From: an uncultured virus (IMG/VR IMGVR_UViG_3300021964_000046)
Taxonomy: Duplodnaviria > Heunggongvirae > Uroviricota > Caudoviricetes
Virus record (IMG/VR): IMGVR_UViG_3300021964_000046
Length of the DNA stretch: 64,000 nucleotides
Direction: 5' to 3' (one strand)
Part shown: piece after piece, positions 29,930 through 56,880 of the stretch
How positions within the stretch are numbered: position 1 is the first letter of the stretch
Layout of the letters: each line of letters begins with the position of its first letter
Program-made: the position numbers and the translations under genes
Notes under the pieces: model-generated
Told to the model about the DNA's origin: nothing
Databases searched by the model: none
What the model saw: only the letters and a program-made list of their open reading frames with translations

Positions 29930-29971
29930 ACATAATGATAAATACAATTAACATAGTGTTAGGAACCAAAA

Positions 29972-32900: not shown

Positions 32901-35077
32901 AGAACGTAACAACGTTTGGTACAGGATGTGTTGGTCTTAAGATTGACGGCGATTTACACGCAGGCGGTAACGACTCTATTGTTGCTAACGACTTTACACA
33001 GGTATTAAGTGACGGTATTGGTGTATGGTGTACAAACTTAGGTAGAACAGAACTTGTTTCTGTGTTCTCATACTATGGTCACATTGGTTACCTTGCAGAA
33101 AACGGTGGTAAAATTCGTGCTACAAACGGTAACTCATCATATGGTGATTTTGGTTGTGTATCAGAAGGCGTAGATGCAACTGAAGTTCCAATTATTGCAT
33201 ACACTGATAACCGAGACAAACAGGCTCAAGTTGCTAAAATTATTACAGATAGCGATAGAATTCTTTCATTAGAATATCTTAATGCTGGTAGAGAATATGA
33301 TACTAATGGCGGCAATGCTGTTATTTCTATTGTAGGCGACGGCTTTGGTCTTGGTACTGTAACTCCTGTTTACAGAACAGCAGGTGTTATGGAAGTAAGA
33401 TTGCTTAACACAAACGATGAGTTTGGTGGAGAAGATTATATTACAGCAGGTAACGCGGCACAGATTGGTAATGCAACAAGTCTTACAATTTCAAACACAG
33501 ATACTGCAACATCTGGACAGTATATCGGAATGGCAATTTGGATTGAAGCAGGTTTAGGTGCTGGACAGTATGCTTATATTGACACATTTAACGCAGGTAC
33601 TAAACAAGCAACAGTAAGAAAATATTCAGATGGCACACCAGGATGGGATCACTTGTTAGGTGAGCCTATTGAATCATTGCTTGATAGTACAACAACATAT
33701 GTTATTGAACCAAGACTTGAATTTTCAACTCCAGTTGGTGACGGATCAAGTACTTCTATCAAAGCAATTGGTAGATGTAGAGTACAAGACGGTTTAATTA
33801 ACCAGATTAGAATTATTGAACCAGGACAAGGTTATGATAATACTGCGACATTAACTATTACAGATCCAAACAATACAACAGATGCACCATTCCAAATTAG
33901 AATTGCTGACGGTGTATTAGGACAACCAACATTTGCTGGAGCAACCAATGGCGGTAGAGGATCTGGTTATGAAACTGCTACTGCTACAATTACAGCAACA
34001 CAGATTGAAGAAACAATTACAGGAATTACACAAGCAAATCCAGCAGTAGTAACAATTACTGGACACAGCATTACACTCGATGGAACAAAAGTTAGAATTG
34101 CAGAAGCATTAGGATTAGCGTCAAGATTTTTTGACCCTACTTCATTCTTTGCAAAAGTTGTTGATGCAAACAGCATTGAATTATATGAAGATCCTAACTT
34201 AACAGTATCTATTGATACAAGTGCATTAGCACCATATACCACAGGCGGTAAAGTAACACACGGTGGTGGTTATATGGACAACTTACAATCAGGTAAGTTT
34301 GTTCAAGTTGCAGGATTAAGATCAAAACCGAGAGCAGGTTCAAACATAGAATTCTCAAATCAACAAAACGTATTCTACAAACTTGTTGCAATTACAAATT
34401 TATTAGGCGGTGATGATGGACCATTTACCGCACAGTTACAAGTATCACCTGAAATTCCAGTAGATGATGCACCTGCTCAGTATGAAAGTGCAGAAGTAAG
34501 AATTAGATACTCACAAGTACGATTAACAGGACATGACTTCCTGGATATCGGTACTGGTAACTTTACAAATACAAATTATCCAAACGTACCTTTACAAGAT
34601 CCACAGCCGGACAATGAAACAAAAGAAGGCGGTGGCGGTAGAGTGTTCTACACATCCACAGACCAAGACGGTAACTTTAGAGTTGGTGGATTGTTTAACG
34701 TTGAACAGTCAACAGGTGTTGCAACATTGAATGCTGATGCATTTAATATTTCAGGACTACAAGAACTGTCATTGGGTAATCTTGCGGTTGGTAACACAGG
34801 CGCAACAATTAACGAGTTTAGCACCGATGGTACATTCTCCGCAAACAGCGATAGTATTGTACCAACTCAAAGAGCAATTAGAACATATATTACTTCACAG
34901 ATTGGTGGTGGTGCATCTACTCTTAACGTTAACCAAATTATTGCTGGTTTAGTACAAATTTCCGGACAGGAAATTACAACAACTACAGTAGTGCCGATTA
35001 ATGTTAAGGCTCAATTCAATTTCCAAGGCGGAGTTGATGGAGCACCTGTGGCACTAAATATGTTTTTAATGGGATAA
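29972..35077 (+). CDS. Giant tail fibre protein, paralog of 23672
   Basis: MAEFKLGRIRF start, CBM-like repeats, shared YSQVRLTGHDFL.IG.G and FYTSTDQDGNFRVG; TAAATA at 29939-44. Confidence 0.75.
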   Translation: MAEFKLGRIRFIWKGAWTSAKQYYKDDVVRYGGRTYIVNTGHISSNAFTTDISYFDLLADGTEWKGEWALTTVYKPNDVVKYGGYLYVCNTGHTSASQASDGLEFDQTKWDLFAEGFDWKGAWGVATRYKVNDIVRYGGVMYLCTEAHTSAADSADGLEQDQTKWDLFANGMTWRTTWTATTRYKVGDVVRYGGQVYICNTGHTAGATDADGLEADQASWDYLHKGIEYLGNWATSTRYKINDVVKYGGDIWICTTFHTSGATLAADESNWSIFVPGLEFEDSWQNNVNYQPGDVVTYGGYSYISITNNFGQTPFNNITHWELFTTGFTFRGDYDNNFAYKVGDVVRLGGWTYIALADGTGNRPPDAVYWDKLNEGLYWKGEWQNAVYYDKGDVVRGINDVNSYVCIAPHTSEQIGAGQNRPDQDLAGNYWNLLSGGAEVGNLTTRGDIVYYSGAGPTRLPVGAPGQVLKVNGAGTDPEWAYFGQLDAVYYTALDGADSAVPASGVTLDKPFRTVNFGLRQIEEGARKPYATQLLKRNKAFIQDETLSWVDTQIVNSSAPFTGSFTYTAANWRRDLGTFIDALIWDLSHGGNRKTRLETLAYFDSDADQYYVSNDGITAEFAATLTFITTLIDDVITQDTPATDYQVARSVANPTLQITDNTIVEEPEAQQILVNLRTVASAALTAGNTNSVPAEIVANDTLFVKTGSFAEVLPMVIPESCAVVGDELRSTKITPAGSLVDSSDTQYSIAGITHMASIIDDIITNTAVTAQTGNTETQDTALPAGSAAAGTAAATIATDIKNKIDFVLNSVGSDVAMTGSNTPNKTADYTDAVLRLTENKDFIAEDVNRYIIATYPAYTDYISGPNAAALQASCKRDVKRYIEAIQHDLIYTGNYKAQRAAEQYYRSVGGSTLNDMFYVRNGTGLRNCTVQGLDGVLGTVNTYGTKRPSAGAYVSLDPGWGTAHEDAWVKNKSCYVQNVTTFGTGCVGLKIDGDLHAGGNDSIVANDFTQVLSDGIGVWCTNLGRTELVSVFSYYGHIGYLAENGGKIRATNGNSSYGDFGCVSEGVDATEVPIIAYTDNRDKQAQVAKIITDSDRILSLEYLNAGREYDTNGGNAVISIVGDGFGLGTVTPVYRTAGVMEVRLLNTNDEFGGEDYITAGNAAQIGNATSLTISNTDTATSGQYIGMAIWIEAGLGAGQYAYIDTFNAGTKQATVRKYSDGTPGWDHLLGEPIESLLDSTTTYVIEPRLEFSTPVGDGSSTSIKAIGRCRVQDGLINQIRIIEPGQGYDNTATLTITDPNNTTDAPFQIRIADGVLGQPTFAGATNGGRGSGYETATATITATQIEETITGITQANPAVVTITGHSITLDGTKVRIAEALGLASRFFDPTSFFAKVVDANSIELYEDPNLTVSIDTSALAPYTTGGKVTHGGGYMDNLQSGKFVQVAGLRSKPRAGSNIEFSNQQNVFYKLVAITNLLGGDDGPFTAQLQVSPEIPVDDAPAQYESAEVRIRYSQVRLTGHDFLDIGTGNFTNTNYPNVPLQDPQPDNETKEGGGGRVFYTSTDQDGNFRVGGLFNVEQSTGVATLNADAFNISGLQELSLGNLAVGNTGATINEFSTDGTFSANSDSIVPTQRAIRTYITSQIGGGASTLNVNQIIAGLVQISGQEITTTTVVPINVKAQFNFQGGVDGAPVALNMFLMG

Positions 35078-35090
35078 AGGAGAAAAAACT

Positions 35091-35408
35091 ATGGCATCAG
35101 GAAGATTAGGAGCGGCAGACTTAGTATCCGCTACCGACACCACCGTATATACTGTGCCAACTGACAACTATGCAGTTGTTACATTATCGGTGTGTAATAG
35201 AGGAAATCAAGCAATTGGCGTACAAGTAGCCGTTGCGGCCGCGGCAACCCCGACAGCGGCCGAATACATTGAGTGGGAAACAGAAGTGTTAGCACACGGT
35301 GTATTAGAAAGATCGGGAATAGTAATGGACGCTGGAAAGAGGTTGGTTGTAAAATCAAGTTCAGGAAATGTTAGTGCAGTTGCGTTCGGTATTGAGACTG
35401 CGGCATAA
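35091..35408 (+). CDS. Small virion adaptor-like protein (paralog 3 of 3)
   Basis: VYTVPTDNYAVVTLSVCN...GIVMDAGKRL. Confidence 0.65.
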   Translation: MASGRLGAADLVSATDTTVYTVPTDNYAVVTLSVCNRGNQAIGVQVAVAAAATPTAAEYIEWETEVLAHGVLERSGIVMDAGKRLVVKSSSGNVSAVAFGIETAA

Positions 35409-35429
35409 ATACAATAGAAGGATATAACA

Positions 35430-35756
35430 ATGGGAAGATATATTACTACAACTGGAACCGCTGGTACTGTATTGAGAACAACAGGCACGAGTTATGCGGC
35501 CCAAGTTAACGATAGAGTATTGTGTACATCAGGTGGAATTACAATTACACTACCTCTTAACACAAGTTTGTTAGAGAATGACACAATTCAGATCGTTGAT
35601 GTTACGGGTGCATTTAGTGCGTCTAATGTGACAGTAGCACGTAACGGCGCGAAAATCCAGAATTTAAGCGAAGATTTAACACTTGATATTAACAACTCTG
35701 CTGTTACACTTGTTTACACAGGTGCAACGTACGGTTGGATTATTAGTGGAACATAA
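35430..35756 (+). CDS. Tail fibre-associated small domain protein
   Basis: TSGGITITLP...D.IQIVD..G.F...NVTVARNG.KIQ...EDLTLD...VTLVY...GW, typical of T4-like fibre repeat domains; TAAATA at 35406-11. Confidence 0.6.
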   Translation: MGRYITTTGTAGTVLRTTGTSYAAQVNDRVLCTSGGITITLPLNTSLLENDTIQIVDVTGAFSASNVTVARNGAKIQNLSEDLTLDINNSAVTLVYTGATYGWIISGT

Positions 35757-35773
35757 GATAGGAAGTATATAGC

Positions 35774-36505
35774 ATGGCAACACTTAGAGGATTACTTAGT
35801 GATGTTGAGCCGGCAAAGTCAGGCGTACAACGACAGTTTTGGGTTTGGAATGAATCAGATGGCATCGGCAACGGTGGTCGTTGTTGTCTGTGGACAGTTC
35901 CAACCGGTTCTGTAAACGTCACGTATGAATTATGGGGCGGCGGTGGAGGCGGTCACGGCGGTTGCTGTTGTCAGTTTCCAAATAGACCAGCGGCAGGCGG
36001 AAGTTATGCTATTAGAACTATTCAAACTATAGCAGGATGTCAATATACAATCTGTGCAGGCGGTTCAACAGTATGTTGCTGTTTCGGATGTATTGGCGGA
36101 AATGGCTATCCAAGTTTTGTAACAGGTTCAAGTATTGCTACTACCTGTGCACCAGGTGGCTGTGCTGGTAAAGCGTGTTGTTTCACTGATGCATACACTT
36201 GTCACCCAAGTTTTGTGTGGCAATGTGGTACAGGTGATTGGGGACTTCCACAAGTATCTGGAAGTTCAAAGAGAAGTCAATATTGTCATAACCAAATGTG
36301 GAACTTTACAGGAGGTACTCCACTGTTTGGTCATGCAAGAAGATCAAGAGACTGGTGTGCTGGTGAATTTACCAACACCGGCTCATGTTTCCACTGTTTA
36401 GCAGAATTCCCCGGAGGGGGTGGCGGCGGCGGAGCGGCCTGTGGAGAACCTTGTTGCTGGGGCGGCTGGGGTCAAGCAGGTGCGGTAAAAATTAGTTATA
36501 GTTAA
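35774..36505 (+). CDS. Cys-rich glycine-rich adhesin-like fibre-tip protein A
   Basis: WTVP.G...ELWGGGGGG...GGSY...YTICAGG...FPGGGG...GAVKISY scaffold; about 24 Cys in 243 aa. Confidence 0.7.
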   Translation: MATLRGLLSDVEPAKSGVQRQFWVWNESDGIGNGGRCCLWTVPTGSVNVTYELWGGGGGGHGGCCCQFPNRPAAGGSYAIRTIQTIAGCQYTICAGGSTVCCCFGCIGGNGYPSFVTGSSIATTCAPGGCAGKACCFTDAYTCHPSFVWQCGTGDWGLPQVSGSSKRSQYCHNQMWNFTGGTPLFGHARRSRDWCAGEFTNTGSCFHCLAEFPGGGGGGGAACGEPCCWGGWGQAGAVKISYS

Positions 36506-36525
36506 TAAGGAAATGGAGATAAAAA

Positions 36526-37245
36526 ATGCCAAGTAACACAATTATTACACAGACATTTACATATGATTTGCCTGATGACTATCTTGCCCAAACAAATGAT
36601 GACGGGAGAACCGCAACTGCTGAGTATAACGGGCCAGATAAAATTTGGGTATTCATTGATAGAGATACAGGACGTTCAGATACATCACGTCTTGTACTAA
36701 CAGAAGAAGAAAATGGTGCAGATTTTCCTGTACCAGAAGATCAGTACAAAGTAGAAATTAACTGTGCAACTGATCCTGTGCTTTGCTCATTATTTGATGC
36801 AAAAGTAGAATGGGACACTGTACAAGGACAAACAAATATTGTAGTTGATTTACCAGATGGTACTACATACGAAAGACCAGATCCAACAGACGTTGATCAT
36901 ACATATGAATTAGATATGTGTACATACAACTTAGATGGAACATTAACAGATGGCAAATATGTAGGCGGCACATGGACAATGCAATGGAAGCAACCGTGGA
37001 CATCATGGGAACAATTAATTACAGTAAGAAATAATGGATTAGCAGGTTCGGACAGTAAAATTGCTGACGATATGCCTGCGGCAACTAAGCAACAATGGTT
37101 AGATTATAGACAAGAATTGCGTGATTTACCAGCAACATTTGGTTACGGAACAGATACTGAAATTCCGGCCTACATGGTTAATTTTCCAGTAGAGCCAGGT
37201 GCTGATATTGCGGCGGTGGATGCAGACGAAAACCCACCGAGATAA
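36526..37245 (+). CDS. Tail fibre assembly chaperone-like protein A
   Basis: C-terminal RNNGLAGSD..IADDMP....QWLDYRQELRDLP matches the phage tail assembly chaperone pattern; paralog of 38750. Confidence 0.7.
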   Translation: MPSNTIITQTFTYDLPDDYLAQTNDDGRTATAEYNGPDKIWVFIDRDTGRSDTSRLVLTEEENGADFPVPEDQYKVEINCATDPVLCSLFDAKVEWDTVQGQTNIVVDLPDGTTYERPDPTDVDHTYELDMCTYNLDGTLTDGKYVGGTWTMQWKQPWTSWEQLITVRNNGLAGSDSKIADDMPAATKQQWLDYRQELRDLPATFGYGTDTEIPAYMVNFPVEPGADIAAVDADENPPR

Positions 37246-37260
37246 AAGGAGCAGTAGAAT

Positions 37261-38001
37261 ATGTCAAGTTTAAGAACACTATTACAGTACGGTAGTACAT
37301 CAACAGGCTCCACTCCGTTGAGAAGTTTACGTGTTTACAACACAAGTATTACTTCACAAAACAACGGTGGTAGATGTTGTCAATGGACAGTACCTGCAGG
37401 TGCTGTTTGGGCGGCCTTTGAAGTTTGGGGTGGTGGTGGTCCAGGCGCAGGAGTTTGCTGTTGCCAACAAGGATGGTCCGGTGGTTCTGGTTCTTATGGT
37501 AGACGTATTATTGAAACAGATGCAGGAGAGCAATTTACAATTTGTGCGGCAGGATCAACTTGTTGTCACTCAAGATGTTATTCATGTAAAGGATTTCCAA
37601 GTTATGTTTGTGGACCAAACGGATTTTGTATGTGTTCATCAGGTGGTTCAGAAGGGGCTTCAAAATGTTTTTGGAGTCAAAACTGTTCATACAGCGGATG
37701 TCAAATGTATAACTGCGGATGTGTTAATGGAGCAACTTTAGCAATTTGTGGTACAACTGGTGGCGGACATGGGTCTGCTCACTGTGCAAGTGATATGCAC
37801 CAGTTTATACCAAGTGCACCATTTACATCACACACAAGAATGTCACGTTCAGGCTGTTATAAAACAGATGGACAAGGTCAAGGTGATCATGGCGTGTTCC
37901 CAGGAGGCGGTGGTGCTTCAGGGGTAACACATAACGAAACTTGTTACTGTGGAGCAAAAGGAATGGGCGGATTAGTAACAGTATACTATACGTCAACATA
38001 A
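37261..38001 (+). CDS. Cys-rich glycine-rich adhesin-like fibre-tip protein B
   Basis: GGRCCQWTVP...EVWGGGG..AGVCCCQ; about 23 Cys in 246 aa. Confidence 0.7.
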   Translation: MSSLRTLLQYGSTSTGSTPLRSLRVYNTSITSQNNGGRCCQWTVPAGAVWAAFEVWGGGGPGAGVCCCQQGWSGGSGSYGRRIIETDAGEQFTICAAGSTCCHSRCYSCKGFPSYVCGPNGFCMCSSGGSEGASKCFWSQNCSYSGCQMYNCGCVNGATLAICGTTGGGHGSAHCASDMHQFIPSAPFTSHTRMSRSGCYKTDGQGQGDHGVFPGGGGASGVTHNETCYCGAKGMGGLVTVYYTST

Positions 38002-38016
38002 GGAGTAAATAGTAGT

Positions 38017-38739
38017 ATGTCAACTTTAAGAGATTTTTTGTTTGGTTACGATGACCCGAAAGCAATTCCAAATGAATTTGCAGTCTATAACACAAGTACG
38101 ACTACTCCAAATAATGGCGGAAGATGCTGTTTATGGACAATACCAGCAGGAATAGCATATGCAACATTTGAAATTTGGGGCGGCGGTGCCGCAGGTGAAG
38201 GCGCTTGTTGCTGTCAAATGGGATATCCATCATCAGGTGGAACATATGGCCAAAGAGCAACAGATGTTACTCCGGGTCAACAATACACAATTTGTGCGGC
38301 AGGGTCAACTTGCTGTAGACAAAGAGGAAACTGTCAAAGAGGTTGTGATTCATACGTATGTAGATCAGGTTCATGGTGTGCAAGAGCGTGTGGAGGTAGA
38401 GTATTACGTACAGAATGTTTTATGTACAGAACTTGTTATTCATGTTGTAGAATGAGATATTGTGTTCACGGACACAGTGGTATGGACTTTGGAGTTGGAG
38501 TAACACAAGCAACTTCACAATTAAGTCAATACTGTCATGATAGAGGCAACCAGATGACAACAGGTTCATACGGTAACCCAGGATTTAGAAACGGCCCTAA
38601 TGGTTGTTGTGCTTGGGGTGGATCGCAAGGATTTGGCTTGTTCCCAGGTGGTGGCGGAATGTCAGCACAGGCATACGGCGAAGTTTGTTGTTGCGGATCT
38701 CCAGGAGCAGGCGGATTAGTGTACGTAGTATATTACTAA
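38017..38739 (+). CDS. Cys-rich glycine-rich adhesin-like fibre-tip protein C
   Basis: GGRCCLWTIP...EIWGGG..GEGACCCQ; about 24 Cys in 240 aa; TAAATA at 38006-11. Confidence 0.7.
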   Translation: MSTLRDFLFGYDDPKAIPNEFAVYNTSTTTPNNGGRCCLWTIPAGIAYATFEIWGGGAAGEGACCCQMGYPSSGGTYGQRATDVTPGQQYTICAAGSTCCRQRGNCQRGCDSYVCRSGSWCARACGGRVLRTECFMYRTCYSCCRMRYCVHGHSGMDFGVGVTQATSQLSQYCHDRGNQMTTGSYGNPGFRNGPNGCCAWGGSQGFGLFPGGGGMSAQAYGEVCCCGSPGAGGLVYVVYY

Positions 38740-38749
38740 GAGGAAAACG

Positions 38750-39709
38750 ATGGCACATATTAGAAAAACATTTACATATCCTAAACCAGATGAGTATCTT
38801 GGACAATTTGACAATCAGCAATTAACTGGTGAGCATACATATGAAGGTCCAGACACTATGTGGGTATTCATTGATAATGTAACAAACAAAATTTCACCAG
38901 ATGCATACATGGAAGAAGAAGAAGGTATGGACTTTACACCACCAAGTAACCTAAGAAAAGTGCTTGTTGACTGTGATGAAAATCCAATTATTTGTTCACT
39001 TATGGAATGTGATGTTGATGACGATGAGCATGAATTAACTGAAGAAACATTACCAAACGGTGTAACATATTGGACATATCAAGATCCACCGCCTGATCAT
39101 ACATATGAAAAATTTGATATTGAATGTAATTCTAATAACCAATTTATTAAAGTAGCAAGTTCAACAAACGGCGGCACACCACATTATCCGTGGAAACAAC
39201 CACACGTTAAATGGGCACACTTGCGTAGACACAGAACTTCATTACTACAATGGAGTGATGATAAAGTAAACACAGATATGCCACAGTCGGTACAAGATTC
39301 TTGGAATACATATCGTCAACAATTAAGAGATATTCCAGTACTATTTGGTGATAGTTTTGATGTTGAAATTACTGCTGGCGGCACAGGTTATGAAGTAGGT
39401 GATAAGATTAAATTTGCGGCAAGCGAATTAGAAGATTATATCATTGCAGACGAACTTGTTGCAACAGTTAAGACAGTAGACGGCGGTGCTATAACAGCAG
39501 TAACATTAAGCGGTAATCAAGCAGTTAACGATGGTAACGATATTGTTGTAGGTAGAGCGGCAAAAGATTTTGCTAATGTTACATACACATATGAAGCAGT
39601 TGCTGACGGCGCTGGTGCTGGTGCAGATGCTACATTTAGAGTACACAAATGTCAACGCTATGCGGCATGGAAAGTAGATACTCCACGTTCACCTTGCGGA
39701 ACTGCATAA
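38750..39709 (+). CDS. Tail fibre assembly chaperone-like protein B with C-terminal extension
   Basis: RTSLLQWSDD.V.TDMP....WNTYRQQLRDIP; N-terminal half aligns with 36526 (TFTY..PD.YL.Q, YxGPD..WVFID, C-x6-CSL, DHTYE, WKQP). Confidence 0.7.
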   Translation: MAHIRKTFTYPKPDEYLGQFDNQQLTGEHTYEGPDTMWVFIDNVTNKISPDAYMEEEEGMDFTPPSNLRKVLVDCDENPIICSLMECDVDDDEHELTEETLPNGVTYWTYQDPPPDHTYEKFDIECNSNNQFIKVASSTNGGTPHYPWKQPHVKWAHLRRHRTSLLQWSDDKVNTDMPQSVQDSWNTYRQQLRDIPVLFGDSFDVEITAGGTGYEVGDKIKFAASELEDYIIADELVATVKTVDGGAITAVTLSGNQAVNDGNDIVVGRAAKDFANVTYTYEAVADGAGAGADATFRVHKCQRYAAWKVDTPRSPCGTA

Positions 39710-39753
39710 TCCAAATCTAAAAAAATTACACACCCGCATACTTAAATAATTGT

Positions 39754-40587
39754 ATGAACAATACAGTTAGATTTGCGGGTGCTCAAATACCTGTAACTCA
39801 AAATCTCGAAGAAAATAAACAAGCAATTCTCAAAGCAATAGACTGGGCAGAAGAAAATAACTGCGACTGGCTATTAACTCCTGAAGGTTCATTATCAGGT
39901 TATTTTCCAAGTTTTGATTTAGTATTACCAAATGGTGTATCAGATCTTGCAAAAGCAGTGTTTGAAGTTGTTTCGTATGCAAATAAAAAAGGTATGGGTA
40001 TTGCATTAGGCACATTATGGGTAGATATAGAACACAGAGGCACAATTAGAAGGAATCAAATTAGATATTATGATAAACAAGGCGAACTATTAGGTGCAAC
40101 AAACAAACAGTACATTGTAGGTGGAGAAGATGCTCCACATCACAGTTGGGATCAGGTATTAGCAGATCCTCCAGGCACAACAAAAACACACTACCTTGAT
40201 GGTGTGCGTACCTGCGGTATGATCTGTAATGACTTTTGGGGTAATGGATTTAGATTTAATGCTCCAAGTTTGCCTTTAATGGCAAGTGTTCATTCTGTAA
40301 ATTTGATATTACACAGTACAAATGGTGATAGAGGGAACGATGCTGATCAACTTTGGATGGATTGGCATGATGTACATTTAAGAATGATGAGCCACACATA
40401 TAGTATTCCAATTATTACTGTTGATAGTTGTTGCGATAAATTCGGTGAAAACCGTGAACTACCCACAAGTTCTCAAAGTGGCGTAATACATAACGGAGAA
40501 TGGCAAGTAAAAGTGCCAAGGACAGGTCAACAACATTTTTATTGGGACTATGTCAAGAAAGAGAACGATATAATCAATACACAATAA
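39754..40587 (+). CDS. Carbon-nitrogen hydrolase (nitrilase superfamily)
   Basis: AGAQIP...N...I, TPEGSLSGY (Glu), NKQY (Lys), ICNDFW (Cys) triad; TAAATA at 39743-48. Confidence 0.85.
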   Translation: MNNTVRFAGAQIPVTQNLEENKQAILKAIDWAEENNCDWLLTPEGSLSGYFPSFDLVLPNGVSDLAKAVFEVVSYANKKGMGIALGTLWVDIEHRGTIRRNQIRYYDKQGELLGATNKQYIVGGEDAPHHSWDQVLADPPGTTKTHYLDGVRTCGMICNDFWGNGFRFNAPSLPLMASVHSVNLILHSTNGDRGNDADQLWMDWHDVHLRMMSHTYSIPIITVDSCCDKFGENRELPTSSQSGVIHNGEWQVKVPRTGQQHFYWDYVKKENDIINTQ

Positions 40588-40614
40588 GTAATTGCAACAA
40601 AGGAATTAATTAGA

Positions 40615-41601
40615 ATGTCAAAAAGAAATACAGCCTTTTTTATTAACGGTGGAGCAGGAAGGGTTATTACCAGCATTCCAGCACTTGAAAAATATCACGA
40701 AGAAAATCCAGATGACGATTTTATTTTAGTATGCGAAGGTGGCACAGACTTCTACAAAGGCCATCCAATTTTACATAAAAAAGCATACGATACTTGGCAC
40801 AAAAATTTGTTTGAAGACAAGTTAAAAGATATGAATCTTGTAACACCAGAACCTTATAGGGTTTTTGAATACTATAATCAACAAGCAAGTTTAGCACAGT
40901 GTTATGATATTGAAATTAACAATAAAGGTGTAAGAGAATTACCTCGTCCTACAATTAAACTAAGTCAACAAGAAGTAATGACAGGACAAAAATTAATTCA
41001 AGAAGTAAAAGAAAAAACTAAAAAAGATAAAATTATTGTATTTCAACCTTTTGGTAGAGGAACTATGCACGAGAACGGCATGATTGCTGATCCAAGCGGT
41101 AGAAGTTTTGAACCAGAAAATGTAATAAGCATTATTAAAAAATTAAGCAAAGACTACGGTATTATTTTTATGAGTGAAATTGCTATTGAATTTAACAAAC
41201 ACGGCGTAGAAGAACCAGTTGCAATTCCACAAAATATTGAATTAAGATTCTGGGCAGGTATTATCCATGCCGCAGATCATTTCTTAGGTTGTGATAGTGT
41301 TGGTCAACACATTGCTTATGCACTTGATCAGAAAGCAACAGTTGTTATTGGATCTACATTTAAAGAAAATATCTCTTATCCAGCCAATTTAAATTTTGAT
41401 ATTCTTGATATGGGCGAAGGCGCAAGAGTATATTCTCCAATTAGAATTACAATGGACGAATTCTCAGACAGAACCAATGAAGGTATTATGGCAATGAATG
41501 ATACAGTAGAAGATATTGTAGTTAAGTCAGTGCATAGTATGATTAAAGATGGAAAACGTGTCGAAATCCCAGATACCAGCAAACTCGACAAAGCATCGTA
41601 G
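40615..41601 (+). CDS. GT9 (heptosyltransferase-like, GT-B) glycosyltransferase
   Basis: GGAGRVITSIPAL, IIVFQPFG, and ADHFLGCDSVGQHIAYALDQKATVVIGST matching the GT9 DSG..H.A.A......FG.T donor motif. Confidence 0.7.
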   Translation: MSKRNTAFFINGGAGRVITSIPALEKYHEENPDDDFILVCEGGTDFYKGHPILHKKAYDTWHKNLFEDKLKDMNLVTPEPYRVFEYYNQQASLAQCYDIEINNKGVRELPRPTIKLSQQEVMTGQKLIQEVKEKTKKDKIIVFQPFGRGTMHENGMIADPSGRSFEPENVISIIKKLSKDYGIIFMSEIAIEFNKHGVEEPVAIPQNIELRFWAGIIHAADHFLGCDSVGQHIAYALDQKATVVIGSTFKENISYPANLNFDILDMGEGARVYSPIRITMDEFSDRTNEGIMAMNDTVEDIVVKSVHSMIKDGKRVEIPDTSKLDKAS

Positions 41602-42466
41602 ACTTTTTACTTTTGGCTGTAGTTTTACAATGTATGCGTGGCCTACGTATGCAGATATTCTTGGCGATCATTTTGAAGTATACGAAAACTGGGCATTTCC
41701 AGGTTTAGGGAATCGTGCTATTGCAGAACGTGTAGCAGAATGTCATGCAAAAAATAAATTTACAAAAGACGATGTAGTAATAGTACAATGGAGTACACAT
41801 ATAAGGAACGATTATCATACTTTTGTTCCTATGCAGTTTGACACTAAAAGTTTTTTACACGTATGGTTTAGAAAAAATAATCAAATAGGTTGGAAAACGC
41901 AAGGGAGTATTTTTAATCCTAACAACAGACAGTTTGTTTACAACGATAAATGGGTAAACACATTCTGGGACGAACACAGTTACTTAATGTATAGTTTAAA
42001 TGACATGAGTTTAACACAAGGGTTATTAGATAGTACACAGTGTACTTGGTACATGACAAGCATTGGCGATTTTGCAAAAATGTGTACTGACATTCCTAAT
42101 GCTCATGATGAAAATATATCAGACCAAGATAACCTTTATAACAGCAAACCAGAATTAGAAATTTATAAAAGTGTTTTAGAACATCCTAATTGGTTAGAGC
42201 CAATTGGTACATACAGTTGGAAACATCAGAATGATAGTTATGAGTTTGACGGAGATAACGGCAAGTGGTTAGAAGTACACCCAAGTCATAAACAACATTT
42301 TAACTATGCAGATCAGATTGTAAATTTAGATATAGATTTAACAGAATATAAAAATAAAATTAGTAATACTATTGAAGATATTAAGTTAAATGAATCTAAT
42401 TTCTTAACATTCCAAGAAGAAGTTAGTAAAGCAGTAAAGCACGAACCAATGTATAGAGGATTTTAA
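41549..42466 (+). CDS. SGNH/GDSL-like protein, paralog 1
   Basis: FGCSFT, WPT, NWAFPGLGN..I, VQWST..R, C-terminal EVHPS...H. Confidence 0.6.
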   Translation: MENVSKSQIPANSTKHRRLFTFGCSFTMYAWPTYADILGDHFEVYENWAFPGLGNRAIAERVAECHAKNKFTKDDVVIVQWSTHIRNDYHTFVPMQFDTKSFLHVWFRKNNQIGWKTQGSIFNPNNRQFVYNDKWVNTFWDEHSYLMYSLNDMSLTQGLLDSTQCTWYMTSIGDFAKMCTDIPNAHDENISDQDNLYNSKPELEIYKSVLEHPNWLEPIGTYSWKHQNDSYEFDGDNGKWLEVHPSHKQHFNYADQIVNLDIDLTEYKNKISNTIEDIKLNESNFLTFQEEVSKAVKHEPMYRGF

Positions 42467-43347
42467 TGAAAAGATTATTTGCATTTGGCTGTAGTTTTAC
42501 AATGTATGCGTGGCCTACATATGCAGATATTCTTGGCATGGAATTTGATCATTATGAGAATTGGGGATTTCCTGGATTAGGTAATAGAGCAATAGCACAG
42601 CGAGTAGCAGAGTGTAATGCAAAAAATAAGTTTACAAAAGATGATACAATTATTGTTCAATGGACAACACATATTAGGCATGATTGGCATACGTTCAAAG
42701 ATGTTAAATTAACTCAAAGAGGTGATCCTGTAAGAAACACAGATGACACAGGCTGGAAAACAAAAGGCAGTATTTTTAACTATATGAATAGAGAAATCTG
42801 TTTTGATGATAATTGGTTGAATAATTTCTGGAGTGAAGAAAGTTATTATATGTATGGTCAAAACAATATAGTGCTTGTAAGAGGATTATTAGACAGCATA
42901 GGCTGTAATTACAAAATGTTATCAATTAGTGATATGAATAAATTAGGAACAGATATGCCTGATGCTCCGGGTTTCGGAGAAAAAACACAGGAAAAAATAA
43001 ATGTGTTAGATACTAATCCTACATTTTCTGTGTATAACAGGGATGACTTTTTAGAACCGTTAGGAATTTTTGCATGGAATAAACAGGACCAACTATATTC
43101 TTTTTATGATCCTAATACTAAAAAAGATTGGACAGAATTACACCCCAGTCATTGGCATCATTTTGATTATTACAAAGAAATTGTTCGTCCAAGTTTGAAA
43201 CTTACAAACAAAATTCCGGATAAAATACAGTATACAATGAACAAACTTGACACACTAAAAGAAACAAACAAAGACTTAATAAGTTTTGAAGAAGGTATTC
43301 TTAAAGAAATTGTAGAATACAGTCATATAGGTTACATAGGATATTAA
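42466..43347 (+). CDS. SGNH/GDSL-like protein, paralog 2
   Basis: Same motifs (FGCSFT, GLGN, QWTT..R, ELHPS...H); coupled by TAATG. Confidence 0.6.
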   Translation: MKRLFAFGCSFTMYAWPTYADILGMEFDHYENWGFPGLGNRAIAQRVAECNAKNKFTKDDTIIVQWTTHIRHDWHTFKDVKLTQRGDPVRNTDDTGWKTKGSIFNYMNREICFDDNWLNNFWSEESYYMYGQNNIVLVRGLLDSIGCNYKMLSISDMNKLGTDMPDAPGFGEKTQEKINVLDTNPTFSVYNRDDFLEPLGIFAWNKQDQLYSFYDPNTKKDWTELHPSHWHHFDYYKEIVRPSLKLTNKIPDKIQYTMNKLDTLKETNKDLISFEEGILKEIVEYSHIGYIGY

Positions 43348-43348
43348 T

Positions 43349-45157
43349 ATGAAAAAACCAGATTTATGGATTGCCGCTATTGCAAGAGGACACAATGCAG
43401 GAGTGTGTTTACTTAAGAACGGAGAAGTAATTTTTAGCATTGAAGAAGAACGTTTAAGTAGACACAAATACGACGGCGGACCGTTTGCTTCAATGATTAA
43501 GATTCTTGATTACACTGACAAGTTGGATTATCTTGTAGTAGCACATACACAGGGGTTAGAACAAACAGCAGGTAAAGTAGATTTTACAGGAGACGATGTT
43601 TACACAGGTCTTGCACGTAAATTAGGATTAATTGATAGAGATCCTAAATTATTACCAAATCATCCTCAAGTAATTGATCTAAGTTATTATCATCACAAAC
43701 TACACGCGGCACTAAGTTTTTATAACTCTGGTTTTAATGATGCCGTTGCTGTTATTGTTGACGGCGCAGGAACATTTTTTGATGCCCACTTAGATGGTGA
43801 ACACAATCCTCCTACAACATTATGGGAAACAGAAACTATCTTTGATTGTGCATATCCTACTATGTTTAAAACATTGTACAAACACTTAGGAACAAGAGGA
43901 CCTCTGGTTGGCGCAGAGTTTAAAGACTTTGACGCAGGATTCTTTGGTGAAGAAGGTAAAGTGCCTGAGGTAGTATTATCTGAAACTGCTGGTATTGTTA
44001 AAACATATGAAGCAGTTACAGACTATTGTGGATTTAGTTTTATCGAAGCAGGTAAAACTATGGGACTTTTTCCGTATGGTGAATTAAACCGAGAATATAA
44101 ACTGTTTACTAACGATCAAACAAGTCCGTTGTCAAATAGAAATATGATTATCCCAACATATCCTAACGGTGCTCATGTTAATAGAAATTATTTTGAATCG
44201 TTAAGAGATAGAACAGGACAAGATGAAGATGTTACCAAGTTAAACAATAGAAGAGATATGGCATATGCTGTACAAACACAAACCCAAGAACAAGTTGCAA
44301 ACGTAATTCGTAAAGCAGTTAAGATGAGCGGTAAAAAGAATGTTGTTCTTTCAGGTGGTTACGGACTAAACTGTGTTGCAAATTACTACTATCTCAAAGA
44401 ATTAGAAAACGAAGGTATTAATTTATACGTTGAGCCTGTTTCTAACGATGCTGGTACAGCAATGGGTGCGGCACTGTTACAACATAGGGCAATCACTAAA
44501 GACAATACAGTACACCCACAAAAAGAAACGTTGTATAACGGACCGCAATATCATTACAGCGATTCAGAAATTACACAAGTTGCAGAAAAATATGAAGCAA
44601 CAGTAAGCGGTGTTGAACATAAAGATGTGGTTGAATTAATTACAAATAAAAATATTGTTGCAGTATTTCAAGGGCGTTCAGAGAACGGGCCACGTGCATT
44701 AGGCAATAGAAGTTTCTTGTATGATCCAACAGATCCAAACGGCAAAGACCATGTTAATAAAGTTAAGCGTAGGGAATATTTCCGTCCGTTTGCAGGTAGT
44801 ATTTTAGAAGAAGATGTACATGAATGGTTTGATTTACGTGGTATGAAATCATCACCTACAATGATGTATGCTGTAAACTGCCAGCCTGGTATCGAAGAAA
44901 AGATACCTGCTATTATACACGTAGATGGAACCTGCCGAATTCAAACAGTAAACAAAGAACAGAACCCACACTATTATAATTTAATCAAAGCATTTAAAGA
45001 AAAAACAGGATGTCCTATTATCTTTAATACGAGTTTTAATTTAGGTGGAGATCCTTTGGTAGAAACATTAGATCACGCTATTGCTACACTTGCTAAAAGT
45101 GACGTAGAATACCTATATTTGCCTGAATATGCTACATTAATCACAGTCAAAAATTAA
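43349..45157 (+). CDS. Carbamoyltransferase, NodU/CmcH/TobZ family
   Basis: GHNAG, EEERLSRHK, HHKLHA, VDGAG, GKTMGL..YG, SGGYGLNCVAN, DAGTAMGAA, ENGPRALGNRS, VKRREYFRPFA, HVDGTCRIQTV, NTSFN. Confidence 0.95.
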   Translation: MKKPDLWIAAIARGHNAGVCLLKNGEVIFSIEEERLSRHKYDGGPFASMIKILDYTDKLDYLVVAHTQGLEQTAGKVDFTGDDVYTGLARKLGLIDRDPKLLPNHPQVIDLSYYHHKLHAALSFYNSGFNDAVAVIVDGAGTFFDAHLDGEHNPPTTLWETETIFDCAYPTMFKTLYKHLGTRGPLVGAEFKDFDAGFFGEEGKVPEVVLSETAGIVKTYEAVTDYCGFSFIEAGKTMGLFPYGELNREYKLFTNDQTSPLSNRNMIIPTYPNGAHVNRNYFESLRDRTGQDEDVTKLNNRRDMAYAVQTQTQEQVANVIRKAVKMSGKKNVVLSGGYGLNCVANYYYLKELENEGINLYVEPVSNDAGTAMGAALLQHRAITKDNTVHPQKETLYNGPQYHYSDSEITQVAEKYEATVSGVEHKDVVELITNKNIVAVFQGRSENGPRALGNRSFLYDPTDPNGKDHVNKVKRREYFRPFAGSILEEDVHEWFDLRGMKSSPTMMYAVNCQPGIEEKIPAIIHVDGTCRIQTVNKEQNPHYYNLIKAFKEKTGCPIIFNTSFNLGGDPLVETLDHAIATLAKSDVEYLYLPEYATLITVKN

Positions 45158-45194: not shown

Positions 45195-45614
45195 ATGTTT
45201 GATATTGGTAAGTTTTTCGGCAAAGGATTAAAGAACACAGTACTAATGAAAAATGGTACTAATCTAAGTTATCACGGACCGTGGAAGAAAATCACAGAAG
45301 ATACACTACTTGATAGATGGCTTGTTGGCGATTTTTGTGCGGCTGAATATACTATTGTTGCAGACTTATCAACTTTCCAAAAAGAAATAGTTAAATGTTT
45401 AGTAGTTGCAGGACCAAGCACAGCAGAACTTGTTGTGTATGGTAGATCTAATCTTGGAAACCAGATTATTGATTTATCTGTAAGCGTTAATGACAGTTAT
45501 GTAAATGTAATTGTTAATGCTAAACCATTAGACGACTCTGCACCAGGACGTGGTGCAAAGTGTGTGTTTAGTGCAAACTATTTCCAAACGCAAAACGTTT
45601 TAGTGCCTGCATAA
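45195..45614 (+). CDS. Probable virion structural protein
   Basis: 139 aa, beta-rich; TAAATA at 45172-77 and SD GAGG. Confidence 0.55.
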   Translation: MFDIGKFFGKGLKNTVLMKNGTNLSYHGPWKKITEDTLLDRWLVGDFCAAEYTIVADLSTFQKEIVKCLVVAGPSTAELVVYGRSNLGNQIIDLSVSVNDSYVNVIVNAKPLDDSAPGRGAKCVFSANYFQTQNVLVPA

Positions 45615-45646
45615 AGTAGGATAAATATGGGTACTTGGAGTAAACT

Positions 45647-46684
45647 ATGGCTGTAACTTATAATCCGTTTGAATCAGAATATGGCTTTAAAAGTCCTGGC
45701 TTCACTGTGGATACTGAAGGCAATGTTACACTAAAAAGTATTACATATCTTGTTGAAGAAGAAGATATTGTTGCTGATAGATTTTACATGAACCAAGTTG
45801 GTACTGGTGAAGGATCAGCATTTACACAAGACGGTGTATTTACTGACGGTACATCTATCCTTAGAGAAAACCCAAGTATTGCTCTTACACGTGGCACTTC
45901 TTACAGTTTTAGTCTAAACAATTTTACTTTCTTAACTTGGAATATTTTTTATGAAGATCCAGAAGGAACTTCACAACTTATTATCAACAATGTACCAGTG
46001 TTATTATATAACGAAGGTGTTTCTTATAAAGAAACCGACGCTTCATCAACAACTTTAACAGGTTTATCTGCACAAGGTAAAACTACAGGTATATTTTTCT
46101 TTGAAGTACCGGCACTTGCACCGTCTACATTATATTACGCAACAGGTGACGGAACTATATATGGAACAATCACAACAGCAGATCCAACAATTACTGGTAT
46201 TGGTAGTTTTAGCAGTTTAAACGTAATCGGCGATGTAACATTTACAGGACAAGATGCTGAAATTGCAATTAGTCCACAAGGTGCATACGGAACAGTAACT
46301 ATTAATCCTGCAGGCGAAGGTACATTAAGTAATATGTACGTTAATGCATTGACATTAAATGCATCTCAATCAGTTAATTTGAGTCCTGTAGACGAAAATG
46401 TAACTATTAGTCCAAGCGGAACAGGTGTTTTAACTGTTAATAGTGGGCAAGAGGGAACAATTAACAATATGAGTGTAGGACAAACTACACCAAGCGACGG
46501 ATCGTTCTTAGCGTTAAATGCAGAAAATGGGTTAAATAGTACAGTAATAGGAAATGTAACACCAGAAGATGCTACATTTAAACAAGCAACAGGACAGAAC
46601 GCACCAGTGACAAGCCAACATTTAACAAACAAACAGTACGTGGATAATACAGCAACAGCATTAGCGATTGCATTAGGAGTTTAA
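45647..46684 (+). CDS. Tail fibre-associated protein
   Basis: Degenerate cupredoxin-like domain (LTRGTSYSF...VPALAPSTLYY); ends HLTNKQYVD..ATALAIALGV; TAAATA at 45622-27. Confidence 0.6.
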   Translation: MAVTYNPFESEYGFKSPGFTVDTEGNVTLKSITYLVEEEDIVADRFYMNQVGTGEGSAFTQDGVFTDGTSILRENPSIALTRGTSYSFSLNNFTFLTWNIFYEDPEGTSQLIINNVPVLLYNEGVSYKETDASSTTLTGLSAQGKTTGIFFFEVPALAPSTLYYATGDGTIYGTITTADPTITGIGSFSSLNVIGDVTFTGQDAEIAISPQGAYGTVTINPAGEGTLSNMYVNALTLNASQSVNLSPVDENVTISPSGTGVLTVNSGQEGTINNMSVGQTTPSDGSFLALNAENGLNSTVIGNVTPEDATFKQATGQNAPVTSQHLTNKQYVDNTATALAIALGV

Positions 46685-53308: not shown

Positions 53309-53724
53309 ACAAAAGCCGCTGGCAACGATTTAAAGAGTGGTGGACTATTGACCACGTCGTTGATCTATGCATTGACGCATTACTTTTATTATGGGAAGTA
53401 GTTACAAGTCCAATCTTAATTGTTGTTAGAATTGCAAGACACTTTATAGGTGATTGGTTTGTTGGTGGCCTTAAACGTATTACAAGAACAATAGTGCATT
53501 GGTTTGCACGTAAACGTGAATATCGCAAAGCACACGGACACGGTATATTTAGAACCTATTGGTGGTTAATACTGCTAAGTCCTTTTATATTGTTTTTTCT
53601 TGCTATTTTGTTTGCTGTGATATCAGGTGTAGCACAGGATCTTCCTGAAATATTGGAATTATTAATACGAGGTTGTGATTCTCTTGCACCTGGTGCAGAA
53701 CAATATTGGTGCAATATTAGTTAA
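53287..53724 (+). CDS. Hypothetical membrane protein
   Basis: Two hydrophobic segments separated by a basic loop; overlaps the upstream gene by 22 nt; start uncertain. Confidence 0.55.
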   Translation: MVRSTSINKSRWQRFKEWWTIDHVVDLCIDALLLLWEVVTSPILIVVRIARHFIGDWFVGGLKRITRTIVHWFARKREYRKAHGHGIFRTYWWLILLSPFILFFLAILFAVISGVAQDLPEILELLIRGCDSLAPGAEQYWCNIS

Positions 53725-54125
53725 GTAGGCATTGGTGGCGGATTATTTTTCTTAATAATGTCTTTTTGACTATCGCCTGGAATAATTCTATAATTATCTT
53801 CAACAGAATCGGGTGTACTTACTTCACTTACCGAACTACCGTCTTCAAGAGCAATAAGTTGATGCGGTTGTAGTGGCGGATTGTGCCAAGTGTCTCCTGA
53901 TTTAAGTTCTTTGCTGTATAATACAGCATCTTTTGTGTCGATCCACTTAACTTCAAAACGTCCACTGTTCACAAACCATGTTTCTTCCTTCTCTCTGTGA
54001 AAATGCATGGAGAATTTTGAGCCTGCTTTTGCAAATACCATAATTTTACCACAATACTTGTCATTGGTTGCCCAGATTAGTTCATACCCCCAACCTTTTT
54101 CAACTTTACCTTCGAGCCTGCTCAT
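53721..54125 (-). CDS. Cupin-domain sugar isomerase-like protein
   Basis: KGWGYE, SMHFHREKEETW, GDTWHNPP..PH, EVST cupin motifs. Confidence 0.8.
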   Translation of the reverse strand: MSRLEGKVEKGWGYELIWATNDKYCGKIMVFAKAGSKFSMHFHREKEETWFVNSGRFEVKWIDTKDAVLYSKELKSGDTWHNPPLQPHQLIALEDGSSVSEVSTPDSVEDNYRIIPGDSQKDIIKKNNPPPMPT

Positions 54126-56878: not shown

Positions 56879-56880
56879 AG

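Follow-up and report, generated by a model that had tools for sequence, protein, structure and literature searches.

In the lipopolysaccharide (LPS) of Pseudomonas, the heptose added by enzymes of glycosyltransferase family GT9 bears an O-carbamoyl group, which the accessible part of one source ascribes to the NodU-type enzyme WapO (PMC8005017). Genes for a comparable pair of enzymes occur in T4-like cyanophages, which are among the most abundant marine viruses. Here we describe one such locus, the block of genes at positions 35774-45157 of a 64,000-nucleotide stretch of DNA from an uncultured virus (IMG/VR record IMGVR_UViG_3300021964_000046; the whole stretch is called the window). An earlier note, made from the letters of the window, had proposed the block as an undescribed system for tailoring cysteine (Cys)-rich virion adhesins. 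We find that its genes for a GT9-like transferase and a carbamoyltransferase form a discrete cassette that is tied to the genes for Cys-rich proteins and tail-fibre chaperones, and that this is not a chance neighbourhood.

The enzyme genes have been on record since 2005-2010, listed among cyanophage "LPS genes" whose function was unknown. Sullivan et al. (2010) named T4-GC 302-308 LPS genes and, in the part of the paper available to us, raised the question of whether these have a function or are "stuffer DNA" (PMC3037559). For genes that were already named as LPS genes of unknown function in 2010, the word "undescribed" was too strong. Later papers repeat readings in terms of the host surface or of DNA modification (PMC7378029; PMC12801897). 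In full-text searches we found no paper that ties these genes to fibre tips or to cyanophage virion glycosylation, subscription journals being mostly outside the coverage. Elsewhere, glycosylation of the virion by mycobacteriophages was reportedly described by Freeman et al. in 2023. Viruses encode glycosyltransferases that act on their own structural proteins, and giant viruses carry sugar-nucleotide pathways (accessible parts of PMC9614988 and PMC10117803); no case with heptose, carbamoyl groups or fibre tips was found in our searches of the virion glycosylation literature.

The cassette and its coupling to fibre-tip genes

The block is probably composed of two joined units, a host-recognition module and a separate enzyme cassette. 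Its genes and immediate flanks (E, expectation value; aa, amino acids) are:

29972..35077, plus strand: long tail-fibre protein, 1701 aa, CBM_5_12 repeats, heads the fibre block (phrog_9851, E 4e-212; Pfam CBM_5_12 in 6 stretches)
35091..35756, plus strand: two small fibre-associated proteins, 105 and 108 aa (phrog_11338 tail fibre, E 6e-11; tail/tailspike N-terminal matches)
35774..36505, plus strand: Cys/Gly-rich protein 1, 243 aa, candidate distal adhesin (Gly_rich_2, E 5.9e-7; phrog_4205, E 9e-29; 9.9% Cys, 20.2% glycine (Gly))
36526..37245, plus strand: tail-fibre assembly chaperone 1, 239 aa (Phage_tail_APC, E 4.8e-9; phrog_9740, E 7e-37)
37261..38001, plus strand: Cys/Gly-rich protein 2, 246 aa (phrog_4205, E 1e-31)
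38017..38739, plus strand: Cys/Gly-rich protein 3, 240 aa (phrog_4205, E 3e-26)
38750..39709, plus strand: tail-fibre assembly chaperone 2, 319 aa, with a C-terminal extension (Phage_tail_APC, E 2.7e-6; phrog_9740, E 4e-24)
39754..40587, plus strand: nitrilase-superfamily (CN_hydrolase) protein, cassette accessory (PF00795, 32.7 bits, cut-off 23.2, E 6e-8)
40615..41601, plus strand: GT9-fold glycosyltransferase-like protein, 328 aa, cassette core (phrog_8954; AlphaFold2 (AF2) model and Foldseek)
41549..42466 and 42466..43347, plus strand: two paralogous SGNH-fold proteins, 305 and 293 aa, cassette accessory
43349..45157, plus strand: TobZ/NodU/CmcH-family carbamoyltransferase, 602 aa, cassette core (N- and C-terminal Pfam domains; phrog_1601, E 5e-165)
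45195..46684, plus strand: two conserved proteins of 139 aa (u139) and 345 aa (u345), cassette boundary on the far side

The gene content and order given in the earlier note were all recovered by Pfam, PHROG and AF2 models searched with Foldseek. Gaps between the block genes measure 1-44 nucleotides. As that note had also stated, structural genes flank the block on both sides: upstream of it lies the tail fibre of 1701 aa, and downstream a virion structural protein of 2205 aa.

The coupling was followed in 80 IMG/VR loci whose GT9-like copies are 58-84% identical, and these were searched with the window proteins. The carbamoyltransferase gene adjoins the GT9-like gene in 78 of them, and both exceptions lie at the end of a contig. 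The fetched flanks of 75 loci include Cys-rich or chaperone genes, the five misses being cut by the contig end on the expected side; the co-occurrence that the earlier note had proposed to check is found in all evaluable relatives (75/75 metagenomic loci). The two small fibre-associated proteins, which precede the Cys-rich genes, are found in 64 of the 80. Gene order is that of the window in 66 loci. In nine (L023, L024, L030, L032, L035, L039, L041, L048 and L067) only the cassette, made up of GT9-like, SGNH and carbamoyltransferase genes, has the reverse orientation; it keeps its site, with the fibre/chaperone genes on one side and u139, u345 and the structural genes on the other, and u139 and u345 remain on the structural strand. 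Because the cassette alone inverts, we regard it as a discrete unit, one that nevertheless stays beside the adhesin genes. Its accessory parts vary: SGNH genes are present in 44/80 loci, the nitrilase-family gene in 10/80, and a second carbamoyltransferase in some.

These loci are relatives and not independent samples, and the weight of the argument comes from the rearrangements and from the spread over genera. The order is repeated in P-SSM2, S-SSM7, S-CAM3 and S-CAM1, which together with the window makes at least four genus-level lineages. In the first three of these isolates, a fibre gene and two small genes are followed by two to three proteins with 8-12% Cys, a chaperone and then the cassette. 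Even the most distant relative (43% identity) has this arrangement: fibre genes lead to a Cys-rich open reading frame (ORF) and a Tfa chaperone, after which come genes for the GT9-like protein, the carbamoyltransferase, a HAD phosphatase and an epimerase. Identity to the window is unevenly distributed in locus L022, being 66% for the GT9-like protein, 63% for the carbamoyltransferase and 32-45% for the Cys-rich genes. Among 50,697 phage records, chaperone homologues occur in 15, and the GT9-like gene is present in 15/15 of them. The occurrence of Cys-rich genes apart from the cassette was tested through these chaperone homologues and by Pfam searches of selected neighbours. Cys-rich protein 2 itself, as a tblastn query, returned three records, the low-complexity filter probably concealing more. 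Taken together, the coupling is real and more general than the window alone could show.

We also looked for homologues of the GT9-like protein in 185,579 species genomes, by a pattern-seeded search that returned 12 contigs. In 11 of the 12 the carbamoyltransferase gene stands beside the GT9-like gene. As cellular homologues they were rejected, since all 12 are contigs of metagenome-assembled genomes (MAGs) with mutually inconsistent taxa and 11 of them show phage synteny. The bins of L092-L102 are labelled Neomarinimicrobiota, Methanobacteriota, Chitinophagales, Flavobacteriales and Gammaproteobacteria, and the presence of cyanophage-like contigs in these MAGs is probably binning contamination.

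The three Cys/Gly-rich proteins contain 9.3-10.0% Cys and 18-20% Gly, and their Cys and Gly columns are conserved in a 27-sequence alignment. Protein 1 passes the Pfam Gly_rich_2 threshold, and the Atlas neighbours of proteins 2 and 3 are viral Gly_rich_2 clusters. A sequence search of PDB with protein 2 returned no chain at E <= 10, and hence no gp38. Both chaperones exceed the cut-off of the Tfa-type Pfam family PF16778 (36.4 and 27.5 bits vs 26.6); a sequence search of PDB with the chaperone gave no usable match. On the far side of the cassette, u345 looks fibre-like, and neither u139 nor u345 matches a Pfam or PHROG family.

By gene content and protein matches, the window belongs to a T4-like cyanomyovirus of the Kyanoviridae, and by protein comparison its nearest isolates are marine cyanomyoviruses of that family. 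For the carbamoyltransferase these are S-SSM7, S-SSM6a and Sf-FS3 (about 65% identity), with S-CAM1/3 and P-SSM2/5 at 47-49%; at the DNA level, the block has no near-identical match among the 50,697 phage records. The structural genes, identified in family scans as baseplate, fibre, neck and sheath genes, are T4-like, tightly packed and mainly on the plus strand, and G+C content is 33-43% across the window. Two giant fibre proteins (2085 and 1701 aa; 23672-35077) have six CBM_5_12 carbohydrate-binding repeats each. A 145-aa ORF at 53287-53724 (plus strand), overlapping the end of the 2205-aa structural gene, encodes a strongly hydrophobic product with possible membrane segments and has no family match in Pfam/PHROG-type scans.

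Enzymes, sugar supply and promoters

According to its AF2 model (predicted local distance difference test score, pLDDT, 81.7; predicted template modelling score 0.84), the GT9-like protein has a two-Rossmann GT-B fold closest to GT9 structures. The ten best Foldseek matches in PDB are all GT9 or TibC; the top structure is the Veillonella GT9 protein 3tov (E 2e-10), and WaaC, TibC and WaaF come next. Many homologues are labelled ADP-heptose:LPS heptosyltransferase by the JGI pipeline, and public metagenomes hold 3741 homologue clusters of the family at 90% identity. Sequence and profile searches of PDB gave nothing usable. The NCBIfam heptosyltransferase III model matches at E 0.005 with 16 bits vs a cut-off of 170, and a 43%-identical homologue reaches the GT9 model PF01075 at E 0.013, under the cut-off.

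Residues D227, S228, G230, Q231 and H232 are invariant in 35/35 sequences. The segment G-C-D-S-V-G-Q-H is aligned to N-D-S-G-L-M-H of WaaF (hhalign, weak, E 0.12), and we take the C-terminal D-S-G-x-x-H to be the nucleotide-sugar motif of GT9. Equally invariant (35/35) is Arg16, which is paired with Asp13 of WaaC, presumably the N-terminal catalytic Asp of the GT9 family (G-A-G-R vs S-M-G-D; hhalign, low probability, E 0.0035). The donor would be ADP-heptose, as linkage to HldE/HldD-like genes suggests. A shorter, 245-aa homologue with 26% identity over GT9-like residues ~1-248 is encoded in an unrelated group, that of Vibrio phage D505 (L084 9001-9738); its neighbours are a 2109-aa hypothetical protein on one side and a 1756-aa tail protein on the other, and it is represented by 31 Vibrio phage records.

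In the carbamoyltransferase, both the Kae1-like N-terminal domain (PF02543, 82 bits, cut-off 24) and the YrdC-like C-terminal domain (PF16861, Carbam_trans_C, 202 bits, cut-off 27, E 6.5e-60) are present. Its homologues in PDB are 7xb6, NovN, GdmN and TobZ (E 1e-53 to 1e-39), and it misses the NodU equivalog cut-off of NCBIfam (146.6 vs 1000 bits). More distant paralogues are placed elsewhere in Kyanoviridae, by thyX/phoH in S-RIM44. A shorter one is found in ACG-2014d (L089 5497-6996) between head vertex gp24 and gp3, in the core structural cluster, and another lies within a sugar/radical-SAM cluster in a pelagiphage. In S-CAM8 (L086 9562-10743) and S-TIM4 (L087 9576-10739), which have no GT9-like gene, a 40%-identical paralogue stands tail-to-tail with a Gly_rich_2 fibre gene at the end of the fibre block, whose product contains 30-33% Gly and hardly any Cys.

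The two SGNH-fold proteins are 46% identical to each other. They match no Pfam model, a sequence search of PDB gave nothing usable, and no match was found in the 50,697 phage records. The AF2 model of the 293-aa protein has pLDDT 88.5, and the Foldseek matches listed for it are nearly all GDSL/SGNH esterases, TesA or PatB (best E 9e-5). Conserved positions are G8-C9-S10 (46/47 sequences), G37, G39 and N40 (47/47) and [ED]224-x-H226 (47/47), the last within a conserved [ED]-x-H-P. These residues may correspond to the Ser, Gly, Asn and His blocks of SGNH enzymes; the acid sits at His-2 rather than at His-3. For the nitrilase-family protein, the best PDB match is weak (N-carbamoyl-D-amino-acid hydrolase, E 2e-4); in the alignment P-E-G is paired with P-E-L and I-C-N-D with I-C-N-D, and the Lys of the Glu-Lys-Cys triad is not placed.

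A possible sugar supply is encoded on the opposite strand:

53721..57321, minus strand: ADP-heptose array of NUDIX, HldE-like, HldD-like, DUF6065-like and cupin genes (NCBIfam and Pfam)

This tight array, 8.6 kb distant from the block, follows gp14/gp15 and the late-like motif CTAAATA, a position that bears out the earlier note's heptose module about 9 kb away and behind late structural genes. The HldE-like kinase/adenylyltransferase (E 4e-106, 355 bits, equivalog cut-off 521) and the HldD-like epimerase (E 2e-75, 254 bits, equivalog cut-off 275) are encoded at 54810-56878 (minus strand; both scores from NCBIfam). The four-enzyme ADP-heptose set is not complete in the window, which holds these two genes and no GmhA- or GmhB-type gene. 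Isomerase (SIS) families are absent from general ORF scans of the window, no search aimed at SIS having been made, and there is neither a homologue of the P-SSM2 HAD-type gene nor a D-x-D-G-T motif. In that P-SSM2 gene (L085 16903-17247), whose annotation reads "phosphoheptose isomerase", a D-x-D-G-T motif is present, and the product resembles a HAD phosphatase. The heptose module is always accompanied by a small cupin, which carries the annotation "cysteine dioxygenase" and might stand in for GmhA. Here (53721-54823, minus strand) the module also includes the DUF6065-like protein, a homologue of which (32% identity) is located inside the cassette, between GT9-like and SGNH genes, in the related contig L094.

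In other lineages the heptose genes adjoin the cassette directly, which makes a link between its enzymes and the distant module credible. They stand directly 3' of the carbamoyltransferase in S-SSM7, S-CAM3 and P-SSM2, and likewise in the 25 of 80 loci with an HldE match inside the flanks. In a third layout of the locus, a split HldE, the cupin and HldD come immediately after the carbamoyltransferase.

The earlier note had placed the whole block under late promoters, which is borne out only in part. The block contains no match to the T4 late consensus TATAAATA, and the whole window has three vs 7.1 expected. Of its core ATAAATA, 7/10 plus-strand occurrences fall within 60 nucleotides upstream of a plus-strand gene start, among them:

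34 nucleotides before 29972: ATAAATA, ahead of the fibre gene
35405: ATAAATA, before 35430 (second small protein)
45171: ATAAATA, before 45195
45621: ATAAATA, before 45647

Directly ahead of the enzyme genes no ATAAATA is found in the window, and a sigma-70 and terminator scan of the block gave nothing above shuffled controls. Because no late motif directly precedes them, the enzyme genes of this phage would be read through from the fibre-module site at 35405.

In most relatives, judging from upstream motifs, the cassette has a promoter of its own. We compared 61 distinct 120-nucleotide regions upstream of the GT9-like gene with random 120-nucleotide windows as background. The late-type motif [ACT]TAAATA is present in 38 of the 61 (background 5.6%), often right after an intrinsic terminator, and two regions have both late-type and sigma-70-type signals. 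Four seawater metatranscriptomes include contigs over stretches of the genes for the hydrolase, the GT9-like protein, the SGNH proteins and the carbamoyltransferase, with 0-6 differing letters per piece and a lower summed depth over the cassette; such contigs, this depth included, say nothing on level, strand or timing, and DNA carry-over is possible. In the accessible supplements of PMC7238727, the four orthologue groups are in the orthologue-definition table only, and not among the genes with peak times.

Possible acceptors of the modification

From the enzyme families and their genetic coupling we infer a donor sugar, an acceptor and a chemistry as follows. The host-recognition unit would consist of the long fibre, two connector-like small proteins and three Cys/Gly-rich distal adhesins folded by the two Tfa-type chaperones. 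The GT9-fold transferase and the TobZ/NodU-type O-carbamoyltransferase would form the invariable core of the cassette. Optional additions would be SGNH acyl-esterases/transferases (one or two), a hydrolase of the nitrilase family, a further carbamoyltransferase and ADP-heptose genes. Phage HldE and HldD would produce ADP-heptose, whose sugar is absent from host LPS. The GT9-fold enzyme would then put heptose on the fibre-tip proteins or on another virion protein in the cytoplasm, the carbamoyltransferase would O-carbamoylate the sugar via carbamoyl-AMP, and the SGNH proteins would attach or trim an acyl group. Glycosylation of the fibre or virion with carbamoyl-heptose is the reading we tentatively put first, with less than even confidence, and we favour it over masking of the host receptor, which we hold for possible at a lower level of credence.

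The LPS of marine Synechococcus WH8102 and CC9311 is, in the part of a review available to us, described as being without heptose and Kdo (3-deoxy-D-manno-oct-2-ulosonic acid) (PMC4515613). Because of this, the canonical GT9 acceptor would be missing and a phage-borne sugar supply makes sense. The core is read as a carbamoyl-heptose unit because of the Pseudomonas precedent of GT9-added heptose and WapO carbamoylation. Strict coupling to adhesin and chaperone genes, together with late promoters in the majority of relatives, makes the fibre tips or some other protein of the virion the more likely acceptor in our view. A virion acceptor is also favoured by the stronger conservation of the enzymes than of the adhesins, by the position of the Vibrio-phage homologue between giant structural proteins, and by a weak complex prediction. 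This prediction, the sole direct hint at fibre proteins as acceptor, pairs the GT9-like protein with Cys-rich protein 2 at a median score of 0.36 (runs 0.36, 0.65 and 0.26), the best of three controls reaching 0.00; partner pLDDT is at least 77, and at least 50% of the contacts are common to the runs. In calibration, the mark was passed by 116/157 solved complexes and 2/215 mismatched pairs, and scores of 0.60 or less comprise 18 of the 157 solved complexes and both passing mismatches.

Several points weigh against glycosylation of the fibre or virion. By the calibration just given, a weak pass of this kind is more often wrong than right unless the pairing is already likely. Decoration of the phage's own fibres or virion, as the earlier note had proposed, gains from the non-chance neighbourhood and from the carbamoyl-heptose precedent; the synteny fits receptor masking equally well, since adjacency to adhesin genes is just as expected of such a system. 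The GT9-like protein matches no Pfam family at E <= 0.01 and fails the PF01075 model, and with Arg at the position of WaaC Asp13, heptosyl transfer itself is not assured. On two long cassette-bearing contigs (223 and 165 kb, both incomplete) no HldE and no PF01370 epimerase was found; HldE and epimerase are found on three other long cassette-bearing contigs. Heptose genes are recorded for S-SM2 and P-TIM68 in the accessible supplement of PMC7238727, and neither phage is among the GT9-like matches. Virion proteomes are available only for S-SM1, S-PM2 and Syn9, none of which is among these matches either. Finally, the late expression claimed in the earlier note agrees with the 38 late-type regions and is not general: a sigma-70-type promoter (score at least 11/13) is found in at least eight of the 61 (background 0.6%), the cassette promoter of P-SSM2 is TTGACT-17-TATAAT with an extended -10, and several of the inverted loci, whose cassettes are preceded by sigma-70-like promoters in place of late motifs, have TTGCT-N17-TGCTAAATT in common. 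In some lineages the cassette is probably transcribed early by host polymerase, as these motifs suggest.

Under receptor masking, a carbamoyl-heptose cap, possibly acylated, would be put on the host glycan bound by the neighbouring adhesins, either as a superinfection block or so that progeny are not lost on infected cells and debris; adhesin and cassette would have to match. Phage T5 offers a parallel in arrangement, as its receptor blocker Llp is encoded beside its receptor-binding protein gene. The solved GT9 structures are mostly LPS core heptosyltransferases, HepII of Pseudomonas LPS is carbamoylated via the putative WapO (accessible part of PMC8005017), and the literature, in the portions available, takes the cyanophage genes as LPS or cell-surface genes (PMC3037559; PMC12801897). 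The sigma-70-type promoters of 8/61 distinct relatives and of P-SSM2 suit early expression, and the cassette, provided with a promoter of its own, inverts independently. Masking would, however, be left without a canonical acceptor on host strains whose LPS is free of heptose and Kdo, and the late-type promoters of 38/61 relatives leave little time for glycan export. The far stronger conservation of the enzymes than of the Cys-rich genes in L022 is unexpected if their specificities co-vary, and no homologue was seen in an evidently cellular contig by the pattern-seeded search of the 185,579 species genomes. Unlikely, in our estimation, is an acceptor of another sort: a small molecule, a soluble glycan or a non-fibre virion protein (for example, the 2205-aa protein), with the Cys-rich link due to a shared variable island. 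It is true that the solved relatives of the carbamoyltransferase work on tobramycin, novobiocin and geldanamycin, that its paralogues in S-RIM44, ACG-2014d and the pelagiphage are placed elsewhere, and that Arg in place of Asp in the GT9-fold protein hints at a non-canonical acceptor. Against a mere shared island, the adjacency outlasts inversion as well as ~57% divergence in the sequence of the GT9-like protein, and in none of the 15 phage records does the chaperone family occur apart from the cassette.

The remaining explanations concern parts of the cassette or other chemistries, and we give them little credit. SGNH proteins, perhaps with others, might be carried on the virion and process the receptor, for example by deacetylating a host glycan at adsorption. 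Phage-fibre SGNH domains that deacetylate polysaccharide are described in the accessible part of PMC9569702, and the SGNH genes lie inside the fibre module. This role is nevertheless improbable, as both proteins are without a fibre or adaptor domain, are missing in 36/80 related loci and invert along with cytoplasmic-type enzymes. A shade less credible still is that the Cys-rich tips are modified on cysteine as an obligatory maturation, with S-linked heptose put on thiolates by the Arg-bearing GT9-fold enzyme, S-carbamoylation by the HypF-related carbamoyltransferase, or both. Such a maturation step would explain why the adhesins are never found without the cassette; if true, it would provide the first S-glycosylated or S-carbamoylated virion protein and show that abundant ocean phages have a novel means of making their receptor-binding surfaces. 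Least credible of all is DNA hypermodification, in which a hydroxymethylated base of the phage genome would receive heptose from the GT-B enzyme, with carbamoylation of this sugar as the next step. Phage GT-B enzymes that add mono- or di-heptose to 5-hydroxymethylcytosine have been reconstituted, and some of their clusters lie near structural genes (accessible part of bioRxiv 10.1101/2023.12.21.572611). The reported enzymes, as far as that part goes, resemble T4 beta-glucosyltransferase, BshA and MshA, whereas the GT9-like protein best matches GT9, and the analysis gave no sign of a modified base. Most relatives, moreover, have a late promoter and a position within the fibre module, and the word "carbamoyl" does not occur in the two papers on DNA glycosylation that were searched. 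The lack of a Tet/JBP family match on 5/5 long related contigs is uninformative, because 14 control genomes are silent too.

Between glycosylation of the phage's own tips or virion and masking of the receptor, a vague annotation is replaced by two sharp alternatives, and either of them bears on host range, superinfection and the presentation of phage particles in seawater. A sub-cluster of the "LPS genes" is a mobile cassette locked to fibre-tip adhesin genes, which would supply a sugar absent from host LPS.

Comparison with known systems

The genes are the same as those of Sullivan et al. (2010): GC 302 corresponds to the GT9-like gene, GC 303 to the carbamoyltransferase and GC 304-308 to the heptose genes. 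Unlike the present reading, that paper, in its accessible part, draws no link to fibre-tip genes (PMC3037559). The Cys/Gly-rich proteins are reminiscent of gp38 of T2 and S16, which the available part of PMC12032242 describes as a small protein encoded directly after the long-fibre gene, with a chaperone alongside and with conserved Gly motifs split by variable segments; the likeness is one of size (~245 aa here), position and Gly motifs only. They differ from gp38 in having about 10% Cys, which is not in the gp38 descriptions available, in the three paralogues per genome and in matching no solved chain. Compared with virion glycosylation in mycobacteriophages and giant viruses, the sugars, enzyme families and hosts differ, and glycosylation of the fibres, if true, would be a new variant of virus-encoded virion glycosylation.

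Closer in concept are the autotransporter heptosyltransferases TibC and AAH, which heptosylate an adhesin in the cytoplasm from ADP-heptose. The predicted fold of the GT9-like protein is GT-B/GT9-like as in these enzymes (4rap and 4rb4, E 5e-8 to 1e-7), with no detectable sequence homology between them, and the putative acceptors are Gly/Cys-rich fibre tips instead of autotransporter beta-helices. From the Pseudomonas module the cassette differs in being phage-encoded and tied to tail-fibre genes, with a host LPS free of heptose and Kdo, and its GT9-like protein falls short of the Pfam GT9 model and bears Arg where WaaC has Asp13. Pseudomonas WaaC/WaaF and WapO share with it a GT9-fold transferase, a NodU/CmcH-type carbamoyltransferase and an ADP-heptose supply, and they represent the best model of its chemistry.

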